Origin: Candidatus Krumholzibacteriota bacterium
GTDB taxonomy: Bacteria > Krumholzibacteriota > Krumholzibacteriia > JAJRXK01
Reading direction: 5' to 3'
Length of the DNA stretch: 64,000 bases
Assembly (NCBI GenBank): GCA_963764625.1
Contig: CAVXTH010000001.1
Location: forward strand, 32,001 to 96,000
Positions 31,599 to 63,998 of the stretch are shown piece after piece. The notes below the pieces were generated by a model. The model ran no database searches, was not told the DNA's origin, and saw nothing but the letters and a program-made list of their open reading frames with translations. Position 1 is the stretch's first letter. The number at the start of each line of letters is the position of its first letter. The translations under genes and the position numbers were made by a program.

Positions 31599-33218
31599 TC
31601 AGTCCTTCAGCCAGGTGGGAAGGGCGACCGTCTGCTCCTGCAAGAGCTTCACGAAGACGGCCACCGTGTCCGGACAGAACTGGGTGCGCGCCTTGGTCGA
31701 GAGATGCCAGATGGCCTCCTTCAGGCCCATCCCCTCGCTGTAGGTGCGGTTGGAGGTCATGGCGTCGAAGGAGTCGGCCACGGTGACGATGCGCGCTCCC
31801 AAACTGATCTCCTCACCCTTGAGGTGATCAGGATACCCCTCACCGTCCCAGCGCTCGTGGTGGTGACGCACCATCTTGCGCGCCTGTTTCAAGAAGAGAA
31901 TCTTGCGCAGGATCCGGTCCCCCATGGCGGGGTGCTCCTTCATGATCTCCAGTTCCTCGTCGGTGAGGCGGCCCGGTTTGTTCAGGATTCCCTCGTGGAT
32001 GCCGATCTTGCCGATGTCGTGCAGGGTCGCCCCCAACCGCACATCCTCCAGAGCCTCGCGGCTGAAGCTCATCGCCTGCGCGATGCTCAGCGCGTAACGG
32101 CTGACGCGCGCGGTGTGGCCGCGGGTGTAGGTGTCCTTGGCTTCCATGGCCGACATCAGACTCTGAATCGTCGCCACGTAGCTCTCTTGCAGCTTCTTGA
32201 AGAGCTCGGCCTTCTCCATCGCGATGCCGGTCGACGCGAGCAGGCTGGAGAGAAGCATTTGATCCGCCAGCTCGAAGGAGCGGCCTTTGAGCTTGGGGCC
32301 CAAAAAGAGCAGACCCGCAAGGCGGTTTCCCGTGAGGATGGGCGCCACCAGGGCGAACCCCATCTCCTTCAGGTGCTGCAGGTCGCGTCCCAGCGTCACC
32401 CCCTGGGGAATCTCATTGAAGTCGATGCTCTGCGCGTGTTTCTCGATGGACTTGAGAAAGGAAGTCTCGTGCTGGAGGTGGACGCTCTGAATTTCGATGC
32501 GATCTACACCCTTGGCCGAATGCAGCTCGAGCACCTGGTCGTCCTTCTTGGTGGCGAAAATGGCGGCCGATTCGATCACGAGCTGTCCCATGACCGTGAG
32601 CAGAAGAATGTTGATCTGGTCGTCGACGTCGATCGAGGAGTTGATCTGGTGGCTGACGTCGAAGAGGGCGCGCTGACTCAGAAGCTGCACCTTGAGTTGG
32701 CGGTACGCCACATTCAGTTCGCGCTGTCCCTCATCGAGTTCGCTCGTGAGCTCGACGTTCTGGCGTGAGAGAGTACGGCTCAGAGCGAGACTGCTCAGCG
32801 CATGCTCCACCCGCGCCACGATTACCTCGGGACTCATGGTGTGAACCAAATAGTCCTGCGCTCCGGCCTGGAACGCCTGACGCGTGGCGCTCTCGTCGCC
32901 GCTCGCGCCACACACGAGCACCGGGACCCCTCCCGACTCGCCCTCGCGCAGACTCAGGCGCGAACACAATGAAAGACCGGAAAGATCGGGAAGATCTCGA
33001 TCCACCAGAACGAGATCGATGCGTTGCGCGTGGAAGTACTTGAGTCCCTGGCTTCCGTCGACCGCCACCAGGACTTCGTATCCGCTCTCGACGAGAACCC
33101 GGCTGATCAATCCCCGGTGCAGAGGATCCGAGTCGATCACGAGAATGCGCTGAGGGGGGGCCGAAATGCGAAGCGCCAAGTCTGAACCTTCTCCCCGAAT
33201 CGTGGTGAATCCGCTCAT
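31599..33218 (-). CDS. REC-GAF-HD-GYP cyclic-dinucleotide phosphodiesterase
   Basis: atypical REC; EAKDTYTRGH, LHDIGK, HHERWDGEGYP, ADSFDAM all intact. Confidence 0.9.
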   Translation of the reverse strand: MSGFTTIRGEGSDLALRISAPPQRILVIDSDPLHRGLISRVLVESGYEVLVAVDGSQGLKYFHAQRIDLVLVDRDLPDLSGLSLCSRLSLREGESGGVPVLVCGASGDESATRQAFQAGAQDYLVHTMSPEVIVARVEHALSSLALSRTLSRQNVELTSELDEGQRELNVAYRQLKVQLLSQRALFDVSHQINSSIDVDDQINILLLTVMGQLVIESAAIFATKKDDQVLELHSAKGVDRIEIQSVHLQHETSFLKSIEKHAQSIDFNEIPQGVTLGRDLQHLKEMGFALVAPILTGNRLAGLLFLGPKLKGRSFELADQMLLSSLLASTGIAMEKAELFKKLQESYVATIQSLMSAMEAKDTYTRGHTARVSRYALSIAQAMSFSREALEDVRLGATLHDIGKIGIHEGILNKPGRLTDEELEIMKEHPAMGDRILRKILFLKQARKMVRHHHERWDGEGYPDHLKGEEISLGARIVTVADSFDAMTSNRTYSEGMGLKEAIWHLSTKARTQFCPDTVAVFVKLLQEQTVALPTWLKD

Positions 33219-58095: not shown

Positions 58096-59172
58096 CTACT
58101 TCGTCGGAATTGCCGTTCCCACGCAGGGATAATCGGTCTGCGCCGGGTTGAACGGATGCGTGTTGACGCTGGCGTTGTCGTAGCACAGAGATTGCACGCC
58201 GAAGACCATGCTGTAGGCCTGATAGCCCAGCATGTTCAGGCACACCGTCACCTGCGCAGAGGTCTGTCCGGTCCAGCAGTAGGTCAGGATCTTCTGATCT
58301 ACCGGCAGAGTGTTCAGAGTGTTGTCGGTCTGCAGACTGCTCTTGGGTGCGTACTGCACCGCAGTGGGCATGTGACCGGCGTCATACTCCGTCGTGGGGA
58401 AGTAGTTCACCACGTACCAGGTGCCATCGTCGGCTGCGATCGAGTCGTAGACATTGCTGATCCCGCGCGAATTCCAGCCGGTGCCGAATTCGTTGTAGGC
58501 GCCCTTCACGTAGGCATCCGCGCGCGCTTTCAGAATGTCCAGGCCCGTGCCCAATCCGGTGCCGAGCTCCGGATAGCTGCCGGCGGAATTGCAAGCACAG
58601 GGGTCCGGGGTCATCCAGGCGCCATAGTCGCTGGAGAGTTTGGTCGTGTAGTCCGTGCCGCTGTAGCTGGTGTCCGAAGTCCAGCCGCTCATTCCGAAGG
58701 CAAGGTTCACGGCGTCAAAGCCCATGTCGATTCCCAGGAGGTTCATGATGGCGGTCGCGGTGCTCGCGGTCTGCCCGGTGTAGCACACGTTGCAAATGGG
58801 CTTGTCGGTGGGGAAGTCCCCGGCATTCACGTGATCGATGATCTCCGACAGCGACCAGTTTACCGCGCCTGCGATGTGTGCGTTGTCGTACACTGCGGAA
58901 GAGCGCCAGTCGACGACGAAGTAGTCGTCGGCGGGATCCGTGTTGCCAAAGTTTGCGTTATAGAGTGCCTGAGCCGAGATGTTGATCCCCAGACCGCGGT
59001 TGGGGGTGACATAGGTGCTCAGATAGGCATCGGTATACGGCGAAACCAGCGAGAAGCCGTCCGCCGCGGGAGGTGGTGTCGTTCCGCCATCGTCACTACT
59101 GCAACCGATGAAGGCGAAAACGAGGATCATCGTACTGGCAAGAAGCAGTTTGCTCCAAGTACTGCGATTCAT
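58096..59172 (-). CDS. tandem rhodanese (sulfurtransferase) lipoprotein
   Basis: lipobox FIGC; VVDWR..HIAGA..CYTGQTA and GHMPTA..CWTGQTS, two active-site Cys loops. Confidence 0.88.
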   Translation of the reverse strand: MNRSTWSKLLLASTMILVFAFIGCSSDDGGTTPPPAADGFSLVSPYTDAYLSTYVTPNRGLGINISAQALYNANFGNTDPADDYFVVDWRSSAVYDNAHIAGAVNWSLSEIIDHVNAGDFPTDKPICNVCYTGQTASTATAIMNLLGIDMGFDAVNLAFGMSGWTSDTSYSGTDYTTKLSSDYGAWMTPDPCACNSAGSYPELGTGLGTGLDILKARADAYVKGAYNEFGTGWNSRGISNVYDSIAADDGTWYVVNYFPTTEYDAGHMPTAVQYAPKSSLQTDNTLNTLPVDQKILTYCWTGQTSAQVTVCLNMLGYQAYSMVFGVQSLCYDNASVNTHPFNPAQTDYPCVGTAIPTK

Positions 59173-59263: not shown

Positions 59264-60613
59264 TCACCAGGATGAATTCGGTGCCCCGCCGGGCACCACG
59301 AGAGTCTGATTCGCTTGCTGCTCGGCCGTGGGCAGAGCAGACAGATCCGAGGCGCGGAGAAAGAAATCCACCGGCCCGTTGAATGAGTTGTGGCATGCGT
59401 CGAGGCAGGGCTTCCCCTCATCCACGGTCGTGCGATCCGTCCAACGCCTAATGTTGTGCGGCGTGGCCAATTTCCACGTCGGCTCGCTACTGAAATTGGG
59501 CAAGGTGCTCATGCCCCACGCCGCGTAGGTGTCTTCCACCACTGGTACGTGACGCAAGACCACGTATTTCTCCGACCGGATGTCCGACCTGGGGTTGTAG
59601 CCGATCTTGAAGGTCTCGTACGAAGAGCCGGTGATTCCCTGTCCCGCGTGACAACCGTTGCAGCTCTTGTAGTTCTGGCTGTGACAGACCTGACAGGCGA
59701 ACTGCGACATGTGGGTCGTGTGATAGACGTTGTCCCACTGGTTGTCGATGCCCGGGCCGTGACAGTCGGTGCATTGAGCCAAACCCGGCGCCTCGTAGCG
59801 AGACTGCGGAGCGCTTCCATCGCCGTGCATGTCGGCGCCGTCATGGCAATCCGTGCAGCTCATGGCCAGAGGAACGCGGTGGTAGTCGGCCCCGGCGTAG
59901 TCATTGTTGCCGTAGTACTCGTCGCCCACCCGCGAACCGTGACATGCGGTGCAGTTCTTCACCATGTCGGGAGTGCGGTTTACCCGGTGCGCTTTCACCA
60001 ATCCGCCACCCACCGGTTTCGGCGAGGAGATATGGCAGTCGCCGCAGCTCACGTGACAGCCTCCACATGCCGATTGGAAACCCGCCATGTAGTTTGGACT
60101 GTCGCTGATTTTCGCGCCCGAGCGCTTCTCGAACAGCGCGTAGTAGCCAGCTTGGGTGTAGTGAATGGCGTCCTCGTATGATCCGTGCGTGCCCGCGTGA
60201 CAGTCCAGACACTTGTTGTTGGGACCATCACTGGGGTCAGCGATCAAGCCCACGTGCGCGTCATCCTTAGTGTTCGTGCCGCTCTGTCCCCCGTGGCACT
60301 CGATGCAGCTGATCGTGCCGTGCACGCTGGCCAAGAATGCGGCTCCGTCGGTACCGTCGATCAAAACCTTTTTCCATCCCTCCACCGGAGGGATCGATCC
60401 GCCTCAACCCTCCCCCGTATCTGCGGGAAGCGTATCCGGCAGGGCAGTGGCGATCAGCATGCCTTGGTTGGTGTGGCAGCCCTCGCAGGTGGCGACCTGC
60501 AGCAGGGGGCCACTCCCGCCGTCGTTGCCGGAATCGCTGTTGCCACAGCCCCAGAGGCCACCCAAGGACAGTGATCCGGCGGCAAGCCAGAACAGGAATT
60601 TGCGTGAAATCAT
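59264..60613 (-). CDS. selenocysteine-containing multiheme c-type cytochrome lipoprotein (UGA at 60404-60406 read as Sec, codon 70)
   Basis: lipobox LWGC, CEGCH, in-frame TGA joining the two ORFs, then 9 more CXXCH plus CLDACH; SECIS-like hairpin. Confidence 0.82.
60376..60394 (-). promoter_or_regulatory. putative bacterial SECIS element
   Basis: ATCCCTCC-GGT-GGAGGGAT; loop G follows the UGA after 17 nt. Confidence 0.75.
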
Positions 60614-60629: not shown

Positions 60630-61298
60630 TCAGTTCTCCGCTTCCGGCGTCGACTGGATTGCGGAGTCATTTGTGTGGTTTGCGGTTTCCTCGGGGACCT
60701 CGGCCAGAAGCCCCCGCGCGAAAATGGGTACGTTGTTGCAGATGATGTCGAGGGTCTCGTAGGTGACGTCTTCGAGCTTGTTCCAGAACTCGGCATTCAC
60801 CGCGCATCCGATTACGAGTCCGACGTAACAGCGCGCGGTGATACCCGGATCGACCTTGCGCAGCTCTCCGCTCTCGATCCGCAGTTGGAATTCCTTGGCC
60901 AGGAAGTTTACGTAGGGCATGCGGAACTCGCGCAACAGCTTCGCGGCCGCGTCGTCGTCGGTGGCCGAGGTCATCAGAAGGAGTCGGAGAAGCTGAGGAT
61001 CCTGCTGCGCGGTGGAGAGCAGGTGAAGCGACACGGCGCGCAGGAGGTCTTCGACCGAGCCCAGGGAGCTCAGAGTTTCCAGGTAGGAGCTGATCGCCAG
61101 TCCACGCGAGCGCGATTCCACTGCTTTTTCGAAAAGATCGAGTTTGCTGGGGAAGTGCCGATAGATGGCCGCCGCGGTGATGCCCACCTCCTCGGCCAAC
61201 TGGCGCATGGAGGTGCCGGCGTAGCCTTGCCGGGAAAAGTGCTGAAGGGCGACCTCGAGGATCTGGTCCCGGCGCGAAAGTTTGGACAGCGCAGGCAT
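60630..61298 (-). CDS. TetR/AcrR regulator heading the cytochrome-rhodanese operon
   Basis: RRDQILEVAL..FSRQGYAGTSMRQLA...IYRHFPSK; start estimated at MPALS. Confidence 0.9.
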   Translation of the reverse strand: MPALSKLSRRDQILEVALQHFSRQGYAGTSMRQLAEEVGITAAAIYRHFPSKLDLFEKAVESRSRGLAISSYLETLSSLGSVEDLLRAVSLHLLSTAQQDPQLLRLLLMTSATDDDAAAKLLREFRMPYVNFLAKEFQLRIESGELRKVDPGITARCYVGLVIGCAVNAEFWNKLEDVTYETLDIICNNVPIFARGLLAEVPEETANHTNDSAIQSTPEAEN

Positions 61299-61381
61299 CG
61301 CGGGGCCCTCGCAAGCAGAAGAGGAAACGGTCTGTTTCTTTCGTACTGACGGTGAATCCCCTGACTTTCGCCTGCAAGGAG

Positions 61382-61496
61382 AAAGTAAACAGTTCTTCAC
61401 TTTGTTTCGGTGGGAAATCTGTAAACGCGTTAAGTGCCTATGGCAGGCTTTATTTAGCCAATATAACCATCATGTGAAGTAAACGATCGCTTAACA
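61382..61496. promoter_or_regulatory. AT-rich promoter region with repeated GTAAAC imperfect palindromes (candidate TetR operators)
   Basis: AAAGTAAACAGTTCTTCACTTT, GTAAACGCGTTAAG, AAGTAAACGATCGCTTAAC. Confidence 0.5.
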
Positions 61497-61723: not shown

Positions 61724-62572
61724 ATGGAAAGCGGGTTGAAGGAAAAGGTCGTCTGCATCACCGGAGCCTCCGGCGGCATCGGGCGGGCGCTCGCGGAGGG
61801 CTTTGCGCGCGAAGGCGCTCACCTGGTCCTGGGCGCCCACTCCCAACTCGAGGCACTGCAGCATTGGGTGACGAAGCAGAGCTGGAAGGAGCGGGCGCTC
61901 GCGCTGAAGGTCGACGTCCGCCGGCCCCGTGAACTGCAAGAGATGTGCGCCCAGGCAACCGCGCGTTTCGGCCGGGTAGATGTCTGTGTGGCCAACGCGG
62001 GAATCTGGCCCGAGGAAAGCCTGCCACTGTACCAGATGAGTGAAGAGCGCATCCTCCACACTATCGATGTCGATCTTTTGGGCGCCACCTGGACCGCCCG
62101 CGCCTTCCTGGCCGCACTCGCGCAGTGCGGGCCGCGCAAGGACGGTCACGGGGCGAACCTTGTATTCATCGGCTCCACTGCGGGACGCTTCGGGGAAGCC
62201 GGTCACTGCGACTACTCGCTGAGCAAGGCGGGAATGTACGGATTGCTGCGCAGTTTGAAGAACGAGATTGTTCAGCTCGATCCCTTCGGTCGGGTGAATC
62301 TGGTGGAACCGGGATGGACCGCGACGCCCATGGCCGAGGAATCCCTCCAGGATGATGCCGCGATCTCCCATATCGCCCGCACCATGCCCTTGCGCCAGGT
62401 TGCGCGCGCGGGCGACATTGCCCGGGCGGTGATGTTCTTCAGCTCTCCGCTTTTGGCCCGCCATGTCACTGGAGAAGTCCTCACCGTTGCGGGCGGCATG
62501 GAGGGTCGGACCCTCTGGGGTGAAGAACAGATCGACGCCGAGGCGGTGCGCCGGCGCCTCGATCCGGATTGA
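61724..62572 (+). CDS. SDR family oxidoreductase
   Basis: TGASGGIG, NAG, S..YSLSK, PGW. Confidence 0.92.
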   Translation: MESGLKEKVVCITGASGGIGRALAEGFAREGAHLVLGAHSQLEALQHWVTKQSWKERALALKVDVRRPRELQEMCAQATARFGRVDVCVANAGIWPEESLPLYQMSEERILHTIDVDLLGATWTARAFLAALAQCGPRKDGHGANLVFIGSTAGRFGEAGHCDYSLSKAGMYGLLRSLKNEIVQLDPFGRVNLVEPGWTATPMAEESLQDDAAISHIARTMPLRQVARAGDIARAVMFFSSPLLARHVTGEVLTVAGGMEGRTLWGEEQIDAEAVRRRLDPD

Positions 62573-62627
62573 GCGGCGACGCTGTCGCACCCTCGTGGCC
62601 TTCCCAAAACTCGAGAGGAACGCTTCC

Positions 62628-63998
62628 TTGAGGAATCTGCGACTCGTACTGAGCCTCGGTGTGCTCTGTCTAGGGACCGTCTCGGTGATCCCCGCCGCCA
62701 ACGCGGTTTCGGGAGCCTCCGCTGCCTCCGCGGCCAGCGAGGCCAAAGCGGGCGCGGGCAAGAGAACCGCCCCGACCAAACTGCCAGGGGTCTGGGAGCT
62801 GGCCAAACAAAATGAGGGCGAGCCCTATTGGGCTCCGCTTTTTCGCCTGCGCGACGCCGAAGCGCAGTACCGGGACACCCCGCAGTGGAGCGAGTACGCG
62901 CAGATGCGCGCCTCTCTCGAGTGCAAGGTCGGCGACCATGCGGCGGCGCTCGCGGCCTGGGATTCGGCCTTTGTACCGCGCGACTCCATGGGCACTCTGC
63001 CCGCGGGCATGAGAGCCCGCAACGCGGTCGACTACTTGGGTGCGATGGCGGACACGGCCCGGGTGATGATGATCAACGAGCGCCATCACGCGGCGTCCGA
63101 CCGTCTCTTGACCCTTGCGCTGCTTCCGATCCTTCGCGCCAAGGGCTACCGCTACTTCGCGGCCGAGGCCTTCGATCCGCGCGACAGCCAACTCAACGAG
63201 CGGATGTATCCGGTGGCGGCGACTGGAACCTATTTGCGCGATCCGGTGTTCGCCCTGCTCGTGCGCGAGGCGCTTCGCCTGGGCTACACACTGGTGCCCT
63301 ATGAGAGCATGCGCGGCGAGGAAGCGGGAGACGATTCGATGACCACGCAACAGCGTCGCGACTTCACGCAGGCGCGCAACCTCGCGCGAGCGACGGTCGA
63401 GCAGGATCCCAAGGCGAAAGTCCTGGTGCACGCAGGGTATTCACATGTGCTCGAGCGCGCGAGCGAGCGCTTCACGCCCATGGCCCTGTATTTCCGCCAG
63501 CTCACAGGAATCGATCCAGTCACGGTCGATCAGACGCGCTTGAGCGAACGGAGCGAGCCCCGCTACGAAGATCCCGCGTATCGCGCCTGCGTGAAAGCGG
63601 GGTTCCTGAAGGATGGGCCGGTGATCCTCTTCGACGCGAAGGGGAAGCCCTACGCGCCCGCCGACTTCGCGGTCGACTACCAGGTCTTCACCCCGCGCAC
63701 ACACTATGTGGACGGACGACCCACGTGGATGGCGTGCGGAGGGCTGCGGCGCGCGGTTTCGGTGGATGTTCCCGAGGCGCAGGAGCAGTGGTGCATGCTC
63801 GAGGCGCGGGTTCCGGATGAGCCGCTAGATGCGATTCCCCTGGACCGCTGCGAGGTGGAGGGAACGGACAAGGCAACGCTGTTCGTGCCAGTTGGCCAGA
63901 AGTTCGTGCTCCGTGTACTGGACCAGGACAAAGAGGAGCTTCGCGAAACCCTGGAGACGAACCCGCGTCCTGAGAAAGCGCGCGGAGGAGACGAATAG
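62628..63998 (+). CDS. secreted hypothetical protein, EreA/ChaN/TIKI-like fold possible
   Basis: signal peptide; INERHH, GYRYFAAE, R..QA.NL, VHAGYSH; start estimated (TTG after GAGAGGA). Confidence 0.65.
   Translation: MRNLRLVLSLGVLCLGTVSVIPAANAVSGASAASAASEAKAGAGKRTAPTKLPGVWELAKQNEGEPYWAPLFRLRDAEAQYRDTPQWSEYAQMRASLECKVGDHAAALAAWDSAFVPRDSMGTLPAGMRARNAVDYLGAMADTARVMMINERHHAASDRLLTLALLPILRAKGYRYFAAEAFDPRDSQLNERMYPVAATGTYLRDPVFALLVREALRLGYTLVPYESMRGEEAGDDSMTTQQRRDFTQARNLARATVEQDPKAKVLVHAGYSHVLERASERFTPMALYFRQLTGIDPVTVDQTRLSERSEPRYEDPAYRACVKAGFLKDGPVILFDAKGKPYAPADFAVDYQVFTPRTHYVDGRPTWMACGGLRRAVSVDVPEAQEQWCMLEARVPDEPLDAIPLDRCEVEGTDKATLFVPVGQKFVLRVLDQDKEELRETLETNPRPEKARGGDE

Follow-up and report, generated by a model that had tools for sequence, protein, structure and literature searches.

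A predicted undecaheme cytochrome c selenoprotein, with a rhodanese lipoprotein as neighbour, in Candidatus Krumholzibacteriota

We analysed a 64,000-nucleotide stretch (positions 32,001 to 96,000, forward strand) of contig CAVXTH010000001.1 from the Candidatus Krumholzibacteriota bacterium assembly GCA_963764625.1. This whole stretch is called the window, and positions are counted from its first letter. Its minus strand carries the gene of a multiheme c-type cytochrome with an in-frame UGA, which is the subject of this text. An initial annotation, made from the sequence alone, had described it as a hidden selenoprotein gene in which the UGA is read as selenocysteine (Sec) by means of a selenocysteine insertion sequence (SECIS). 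The elements of the predicted gene are as follows.

59264..60613, minus strand: complete gene of the undecaheme selenoprotein lipoprotein, 449 amino acids (aa), with the TGA stop at 59264-59266 and Sec as codon 70
60545..60613, minus strand: lipoprotein signal peptide with lipobox L-W-G-C, as read from the sequence; the lipidated Cys23 is encoded by 60545-60547
60473..60487, minus strand: heme motif 1, CEGCH, residues 43-47, upstream of the TGA; C43, C46 and H47 are invariant in 30 sequences
60404..60406, minus strand: in-frame UGA, codon 70, predicted to be read as Sec, in the motif [GD][ED]G-U-G-G-x-[VI]-P
60376..60394, minus strand: predicted SECIS hairpin, stem of 60387-60394 with 60376-60383, GGU loop 60384-60386

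The frame is opened by the ATG at 60613 and, once the TGA at 60406..60404 is passed, meets no stop until the TGA at 59266..59264. Around Sec the read-through product reads ...LWGC(23)...CEGCH(43-47)...DTGEG-U-GGSIPPVEGWKKVL..., the part after Sec being also given as ...DTGEG-U-GGSIPPVEGWKKV..., and its 449 aa hold ten CXXCH motifs and one CX3CH motif, with one CXXCH before Sec and the rest after it. Under translation table 11 the downstream part appears as an open reading frame (ORF) of its own, 59264..60385 (373 aa), starting at a GTG six codons past the TGA; this GTG is a Val codon that starts in the loop of the hairpin. Translation confirmed that the ORF ending at TGA 60404-60406 is in frame with the downstream one, six codons on, and the lipobox, CEGCH, DTGEG-U motif and heme motif count of the initial annotation were likewise recovered.

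The sole export signal of the whole cytochrome is the N-terminal lipoprotein signal peptide, and in the homologues examined a signal peptide with lipobox-like ...[GAS]C and heme motif 1 both stand before the TGA. Because the only signal peptide sits upstream of the TGA, the downstream part alone would not be exportable for heme attachment, in agreement with the earlier remark that the downstream ORF has no signal peptide of its own. Lipoboxes were called by regular-expression pattern match rather than by a dedicated signal-peptide predictor; by this match L-W-G-C23 is a lipobox, with C23 invariant in a 30-sequence alignment (A1). Very probably, 60613..59264 is one gene whose UGA codon 70 is decoded as Sec via the SECIS that follows it, and we hold with similarly high confidence that the product carries a lipid anchor on Cys23 and binds about eleven c-type hemes. 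Sec is predicted to sit in a glycine-rich G-U-G-G loop between heme 1 and heme 2. The stretch from K5 to K81 contains no further Lys and no Arg.

Conservation of the UGA was followed by whole-genome searches reading through stops, in 61 relatives and in 208 genomes of the phylum, and by a scan across phyla using one genome per GTDB species, which found 572 relatives and was counted on the best 80 loci. The gene was found in 20 of the 61 relatives, and 19 of 20 matches covering codon 70 carry TGA. Within the phylum it occurs in 71 of 208 genomes, with TGA in 66 of the 68 matches that cover codon 70 and none in the other two. Across phyla the best 80 loci have TGA in 76, Cys in two (L095, L098) and Arg in two (L067, L088). 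The initial annotation had named the residue at codon 70 in homologues as a check, with TGA or Cys in favour of Sec, and these counts support it. In the extracted loci the TGA always takes the same aligned position, in the motif [GD][ED]G-U-G-G-x-[VI]-P-x-[VL]-E-x-W. The downstream frame, in which 68 columns are invariant in 30 diverse sequences, all heme motifs included, appears to be under clear purifying selection.

The protein database holds 1256 homologues. Of the best 120, 117 cover at most 84% of the query, and therefore had been started after the TGA by gene callers, just as the initial annotation had expected the joined gene to be missed. The three full-length homologues have Cys at the site in P0063 (GEG-C-GG) and P0068 (GG-C-GG) and Arg in P0044, and the Cys forms are continuous proteins. 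Two further loci carry Trp (TGG; L029, genome G049) and Gln (CAA; L053, genome G126). Flanking glycines are altered in variants with neither Sec nor Cys, which read GDAWVG (L029), GSGQAG (L053) and GEIRGG (L067). Loss of the Sec trait was considered as the cause of the Trp and Gln variants and rejected, both genomes having retained SelA.

Extra stops were seen in a few matches. L117, a Gemmatimonadota-labelled locus among the 76 with TGA, is interrupted by an ordinary stop two codons ahead of the TGA (TPG*GUGG) and is either a pseudogene or an assembly error, and two matches of the phylum, in G148 and G143, also carry extra stops. When the window was scanned naively for further in-frame TGAs flanked on either side by an open frame, 117 candidates came up, a number to be expected for GC-rich DNA, and none of them was outstanding.

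The hairpin AUCCCUCC-GGU-GGAGGGAU (60394..60376) has a perfect stem of 8 base pairs (bp) and begins 9 nucleotides (nt) past the TGA, as initially described, with 17 nt from the UGA to the loop. Taken by itself the hairpin is only suggestive, though perfect hairpins with an 8-bp stem and a 3-nt loop are rare: the 64-kb window has 6, and shuffles have 1.9 +/- 1.5. An 8-bp stem and a 3-nt loop follow the TGA in 102 distinct sequences of the family, in two registers. With the U of UGA as nt 1, these are:

Register A, that of the window: stem nt 13-20 with 24-31; 44 sequences; loops GUU 34, GGU 10; cells paired 93.2%, or 40-54% with the partner slid 1-3 columns; pairs changed on both sides 6 of 8; most telling pair 15-29 (GC 20, AU 11, CG 8, GU 4); observed value reached by 0 of 500 shuffles in all five measures
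Register B: stem nt 16-23 with 27-34; 58 sequences; loops GGA 52, GGC 3, other 3; cells paired 96.3%, or 22-50% with the partner slid 1-3 columns; pairs changed on both sides 1 of 8; most telling pair 20-30 (CG 20, AU 10, none unpaired); observed value reached by 0 of 500 shuffles in three of five measures

The loop begins with G in 101 of the 102 sequences, and the UGA-to-loop distance is 17 nt or 20 nt. According to the accessible part of PMC13188914, the apical loop of bacterial SECIS elements is small, has G as its first or second base, often followed by G or U, and lies 16-37 nt from the UGA; the family hairpin agrees with this rule in its loop G and in its distance. In the covarying columns a third codon position that is synonymous pairs with a second position that is not, so protein coding alone is not sufficient for the covariation. 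A wholly different stem, GUGUCGGG/CCCGGCAU, stands at the same place in L104. Of the four variants without Sec or Cys that were folded, three (Trp L029, Gln L053, Arg L067) have a degraded hairpin.

The genome (96% complete, 9 contigs) has SelA, SelB above its curated cut-off, SelD above cut-off with an in-frame TGA of its own, and tRNA-Sec, which answers the look-up of selA, selB, selC and selD proposed at the outset. The SelB match is above its cut-off while spanning model positions 2-353 of 581. On the same contig, outside the window, selD (G000:C1:137574-138506, locus L010) also codes for a selenoprotein (GAAG-U-AAKMSPEDL). In its SECIS a 7-bp stem closes a GGA triloop that lies at nt 24-26 after the UGA; the element has the same form as in the cytochrome family and serves as an internal positive control. 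TGA is the commonest stop of the genome (1103 of 1776 long ORFs) and ends the cytochrome gene too, so the genetic code is not generally changed. By these comparisons, UGA at codon 70 almost certainly encodes Sec in a real selenoprotein gene, and the proposal of a hidden selenoprotein with a SECIS is supported by TGA conservation, Cys forms, stem covariation and the Sec machinery.

In the 30-sequence alignment all eleven heme motifs are invariant, the last one being CX3CH in most and CXXCH in few sequences and the third ranging from CX2CH to CX4CH. Ten His outside the motifs are conserved, eight of them invariant (H98, H120, H151, H209, H245, H263, H301, H386) and two, H298 and H355, nearly so; no Met is conserved. 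As eleven motifs face ten outside His and no conserved Met, counting suggests that at least one heme lacks bis-His ligation. Candidates for its ligand would be Sec70, the conserved K82 or K336, or an open site.

An AlphaFold2 model has a mean predicted local distance difference test score (pLDDT) of 76 and a predicted template modelling score of 0.73. Confidence is low (55) at residues 61-70, up to Sec, which fits the flexible Gly-rich linker of the initial annotation. With this model an exhaustive structural aligner gave 1sp3_A, the octaheme tetrathionate reductase (OTR) of Shewanella, as best match, at a Z of 8.6 that falls in the range the aligner itself rates middling (root-mean-square deviation 4.2 A, 252 of 436 residues, model residues 95-449), and the next match has Z 3.7. 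A sequence search of the PDB with the single protein returned only NrfA at E 0.38; with the 30-sequence profile the matches were short and fell on heme motifs, led by 6qvm (E 4.7e-5, about 80 residues). Pfam finds generic multiheme domains only. No NCBIfam model came near its cut-off, NF040886, NF041027 and TIGR04315 giving no match at E <= 1, and the nearest ExtKL-related match is ExtM with 14.4 bits against a cut-off of 800. These three models correspond to the c-type cytochrome families in the accessible part of the 2026 prokaryotic selenoprotein catalogue: ExtKL (NF040886), GSU2204 (NF041027) and OTR (TIGR04315) (PMC13188914).

The family is widespread among uncultured bacteria and occurs, by record titles, in Krumholzibacteriota, Eisenbacteria, Gemmatimonadota, Calditrichota, KSB1, Latescibacterota, Phycisphaerae, Dehalococcoidia and others. 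No description of it was found in the portions of the full-text literature and selenoproteome reviews that were searched; supplementary tables of surveys, which lay outside the search, may list it. The family has probably not been described yet. Judged by sequence comparison, it appears to be a second, independent family of multiheme cytochrome selenoproteins beside MccSep, notable for its dominant Sec form, its breadth over poorly known phyla and its fixed partner, a two-domain rhodanese lipoprotein. This partner and a regulator flank the cytochrome gene in the window.

58096..59172, minus strand: gene of a two-domain rhodanese lipoprotein, downstream of the cytochrome gene; Pfam PF00581, 63 bits against a cut-off of 22.2
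60630..61400, minus strand: gene of a TetR-family regulator, upstream of the cytochrome gene; Pfam TetR_N, 60.3 bits

The order is TetR regulator, cytochrome and rhodanese lipoprotein, followed by convergent topA. The TetR stop lies 16 nt before the cytochrome ATG and the two genes are probably co-transcribed. An upstream TetR gene is conserved in loci of the window's own phylum and found in 17 of 72 assessable loci across phyla, a distribution that appears confined to the window's wider lineage. A rhodanese neighbour is present in 38 of 45 loci of related genomes, several others ending too soon, and in 73 of the 80 loci across phyla. It lies downstream in most loci and upstream in those of Dehalococcoidia type, so the linkage of cytochrome and rhodanese has survived rearrangement.

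The window rhodanese has two PF00581 stretches with the loops CYTGQT and CWTGQT; in 29 homologues C24, C130 and C299 are invariant, C130 and C299 being the active-site Cys. All 62 rhodanese homologues extracted are lipoproteins, and most of their domains carry the loop C-[YW]-[TS]-G-[QH]-x. In several Krumholzibacteriia-type loci (L073, L076, L083, L107, L110, L121, L122, L133) the protein has four domains instead of two (about 620 aa), and the CxxGxx loop is present in most of these domains. Given these features the rhodanese lipoprotein is a probable sulfane-sulfur carrier for the cytochrome. Three of the variants that lack both Sec and Cys could be assessed for the rhodanese neighbour, which is missing in L067 and L053 and partial in L088. 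JGI names several truncated cytochrome fragments 'thiosulfate/3-mercaptopyruvate sulfurtransferase'; Pfam detects no rhodanese domain in them, and the name was probably carried over from the gene next to them or from an orthology group.

An acidic run stands just after the lipidated Cys (GCSDDDD...) in rhodanese lipoproteins and in some cytochromes (window 59100-59172 and homologues). It resembles the surface-lipoprotein export signal of Bacteroidota, and by this analogy cytochrome and rhodanese might be surface-exposed.

A 4Fe-4S protein (Fer4_11) exported by twin-arginine translocation (Tat) follows the cytochrome in 17 loci, most of them titled Dehalococcoidia or Anaerolineae, and in 15 of the 17 it is followed in turn by a PF01292 cytochrome b. 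The four-gene cluster of rhodanese, Sec cytochrome, Tat Fer4_11 protein and PF01292 protein is found in L099, L103, L108, L113, L114, L119, L120, L125, L126, L128, L130, L131 and L135, most titled Dehalococcoidia; where loci of this type were scanned with Pfam, CcmE and a gene for cytochrome c assembly precede the cluster. In one Gemmatimonadetes locus a pair of NrfC/NrfD type, with a c7 domain fused to it, is encoded upstream instead. Neighbours seen at single loci are an ArsR-rhodanese regulator, a pyridine-nucleotide disulfide oxidoreductase, an OsmC protein and sigma-54 PAS regulators. MtrC/MtrF-like multiheme cytochromes with a type-IX-secretion sorting domain adjoin the family gene at L070:2-1447 and L067:3833-5575, one in a Calditrichia metagenome-assembled genome and the other beside the Arg variant without rhodanese neighbour.

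Four known systems invite comparison. MccSep of Geobacter sulfurreducens is a demonstrated polysulfide reductase with Sec as nucleophile (Sci Adv 2026, PMC13510729). Its Sec325 and a Cys-ligated heme reduce polysulfide and, less well, selenite, and its five CXXCH motifs with a C-terminal Sec/Cys site are described as unique to its family (PMC13510729). According to the accessible part of PMC5877670, mccsep lies in the ext cluster with the rhodanese-like ExtH. Both MccSep/ExtKL and the present protein are periplasmic multiheme c selenoproteins with an in-frame UGA, a SECIS hairpin and a rhodanese-like gene nearby, and yet no NF040886 match at E <= 1 and no sequence relationship connect them. 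The present cytochrome has 11 heme motifs against five and is a lipoprotein, whereas MccSep is a soluble tetramer. Its Sec is residue 70 in an N-terminal G-U-G-G loop, while U325 of MccSep stands in D-G-U-P of a C-terminal immunoglobulin-like domain. Record titles of the present family are mostly those of FCB-group phyla, Chloroflexota and Planctomycetota; MccSep occurs mainly in Desulfobacterota and Nitrospirota (PMC13510729). The distinction from Geobacter ExtKL/MCSEP with its fewer hemes, drawn from the start, was thus upheld. By analogy MccSep may still be the best model for how the cytochrome works.

The AlphaFold model agrees best in structure with 1sp3, OTR of Shewanella oneidensis, which is a multiheme sulfur-compound reductase with a Lys-ligated active heme and a nearby Cys. 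The cytochrome may share a fold with it. Unlike OTR it gives no TIGR04315 match at E <= 1, 1sp3 is absent from the matches of the PDB profile search, eleven heme motifs compare with eight, and the Sec-bearing N-terminal segment lies outside the matched range 95-449. Sec forms of the OTR family TIGR04315 are listed in the accessible part of PMC13188914. The CXXCH-containing selenoprotein family of GSU2204, NF041027, has no match at E <= 1.

Undecaheme and nonaheme surface cytochromes (6qvm of Carboxydothermus; OcwA, 6i5b) are similar in heme count and weakly in sequence and fold (Z 3.2-3.3), but have no Sec and no rhodanese partner, differ in overall fold score and belong to Gram-positive S-layer and cell-wall contexts. 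The Phs/Psr-type enzymes are quinol-linked thiosulfate and polysulfide reductases, and Sud is a rhodanese of Wolinella. They resemble 15 loci of the present family in having a B-/C-subunit-like pair (Fer4_11, PF01292) and a periplasmic sulfur carrier. Unlike Phs/Psr, these loci lack a molybdopterin catalytic subunit and have the heme selenoprotein in its place, and the window genome lacks an adjacent membrane module. By this analogy the selenoprotein would stand where the catalytic subunit of Phs/Psr-type quinol-linked reductases stands, in loci of Dehalococcoidia and Anaerolineae type.

From neighbourhood and analogy we lean, by a modest measure, towards a function in sulfane-sulfur redox chemistry together with the rhodanese, the cytochrome being inferred to act as a selenium-dependent terminal oxidoreductase for sulfane sulfur. 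The Sec would be a redox centre wired to the hemes, as the initial annotation had it. The heme chain would form a wire from the quinone-linked respiratory chain to a site made up of Sec70 and a nearby heme that is not bis-His ligated. In loci with an adjacent module of iron-sulfur/cytochrome b or NrfCD type, electrons would enter through that module; in the window genome they would enter through other partners. The rhodanese lipoprotein would bring sulfane sulfur to the Sec site as a persulfide, and the Sec selenolate would attack the S-S (or S-Se) bond of polysulfide/S0, thiosulfate or tetrathionate. Electrons from the hemes would then resolve the adduct and release sulfide. The reaction could run as reduction or oxidation, with polysulfide/S0, thiosulfate, tetrathionate or selenium species as substrate.

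A bolder version of this mechanism seems improbable to us, namely that Sec belongs to an unprecedented heme-selenium catalytic centre, even as distal axial ligand of a His/Sec heme, and that the protein is the molybdenum-free catalytic subunit of a quinol-linked sulfur/polysulfide reductase. What hints at it is the count given above, eleven heme motifs against ten conserved His outside them. If it were true, uncultured bacteria of sediments and soils would widely possess such a reductase, with an origin separate from that of Geobacter MccSep.

Two other accounts of the gene itself have to be weighed. Translation might end at the TGA. The products would then be the 69-aa precursor of a monoheme lipoprotein and a decaheme protein of 373 aa with a start of its own, or one product beside a dead remnant. 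Table 11 does yield exactly two ORFs, and public gene calls nearly all cover the downstream part; yet that part has no signal peptide while heme attachment needs export, its apparent GTG start is a Val codon within the hairpin, and the Cys forms are continuous proteins. Across phyla, moreover, the reading frame, the place of the TGA and the G-x-G-G motif around it are all conserved, and we consider this account very improbable. The extra stops in L117, G148 and G143 might instead suggest a sequencing or assembly error at the TGA, or a pseudogene. However, the same TGA is present in the 66 of 68 phylum matches and 76 of 80 loci, from many independent assemblies, and purifying selection on the downstream frame is seen in its 68 invariant columns. 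The chance of this is close to nil, and the sequencing error that had been named as a possible refutation is excluded, the TGA being shared by independent assemblies. Set against the reading of UGA as Sec, or of no help to it, are several results. The fold energy of the 81-nt region is unremarkable (z = -1.23; 20 of 200 shuffles fold as well), so the weight rests on comparison, that is on TGA conservation and stem covariation. Rfam gave no SECIS match on 60250-60500, with chance-level hits only (mir-4899 at E 2.5, a CRISPR repeat at E 5). Contigs from four of 14 public runs, the best holding 0.31 of sampled words, include none that spans 60342-60449, and they are silent on both the TGA and expression. 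Trp, Gln or Arg takes the place of Sec in five homologues (L029, L053, L067, L088, P0044), so the protein can persist without Sec or Cys, and the Trp and Gln genomes (G049, G126) still encode SelA.

As regards function, the protein may be a real selenoprotein that acts on another substrate, as an electron conduit at the cell surface or in the periplasm that serves extracellular acceptors such as metals or electrodes, a reductase of selenite, tellurite or arsenic species, or a Sec-dependent scavenger of peroxide or thiol oxidants supplied by the heme wire. Several observations would suit this. The mature peptide of about 46 kDa comes to about 4.2 kDa per heme, which places the cytochrome in the 'peptide-minimized' class; the accessible part of PMC7096707 regards such low mass per heme as typical of electron-transfer cytochromes, carriers and not enzymes. 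Selenite is also reduced by MccSep (PMC13510729). MtrC-like cytochromes with a type-IX-secretion sorting domain adjoin the gene in L070 and L067, the TetR regulator and the OsmC neighbour of one locus would suit a stress response, and the acidic runs after the lipobox Cys resemble the Bacteroidota surface export signal. On the other hand, by far the most conserved neighbour is the rhodanese with its two invariant catalytic Cys, in 73 of 80 loci, and no specific metal is indicated by the neighbourhood. The type-IX-secretion cytochromes are limited to few loci, with tblastn matches in five, of which three are short or on the opposite strand. Another substrate is possible and, on this evidence, rather unlikely. 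For the sulfane-sulfur role, too, there are points on the negative side. Its assignment is based on neighbourhood and analogy only, and the window genome has no adjacent quinol-oxidising module, the operon consisting of TetR, cytochrome and rhodanese only. Foldseek found nothing in the PDB at E <= 0.001 with the model, and the match to 1sp3 is middling as said. The low mass per heme and the five homologues without Sec or Cys also weigh against a purely catalytic view.

Multiheme cytochrome selenoproteins had been a curiosity until, in 2026, MccSep was demonstrated to be the long-sought sulfur reductase of Geobacter. The window reveals what appears to be a second family, unrelated in sequence and far richer in heme, in which Sec and a heme wire would act together with a rhodanese partner; neither this partner nor the quinol modules near the gene had figured in the initial annotation. 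The family is present in many little-known phyla of soils and sediments, with Sec as the dominant form (76 of 80 loci). Were the sulfane-sulfur role true, selenium-dependent heme enzymes would be a recurrent answer to sulfur-sulfur bond chemistry, and a sizeable share of the sulfur-cycling capacity of uncultured bacteria would be invisible to present annotation, in which gene callers split the protein at the UGA and leave a seemingly unexportable cytochrome. The SECIS type supported here by covariation, an 8-bp stem with a GGN or GUU triloop, can be used for genome annotation in these phyla.

Apart from the cytochrome locus, an open frame on the plus strand of the window (62463-63998), without a Pfam match at E <= 0.01, extends over 511 aa and runs off the window end.

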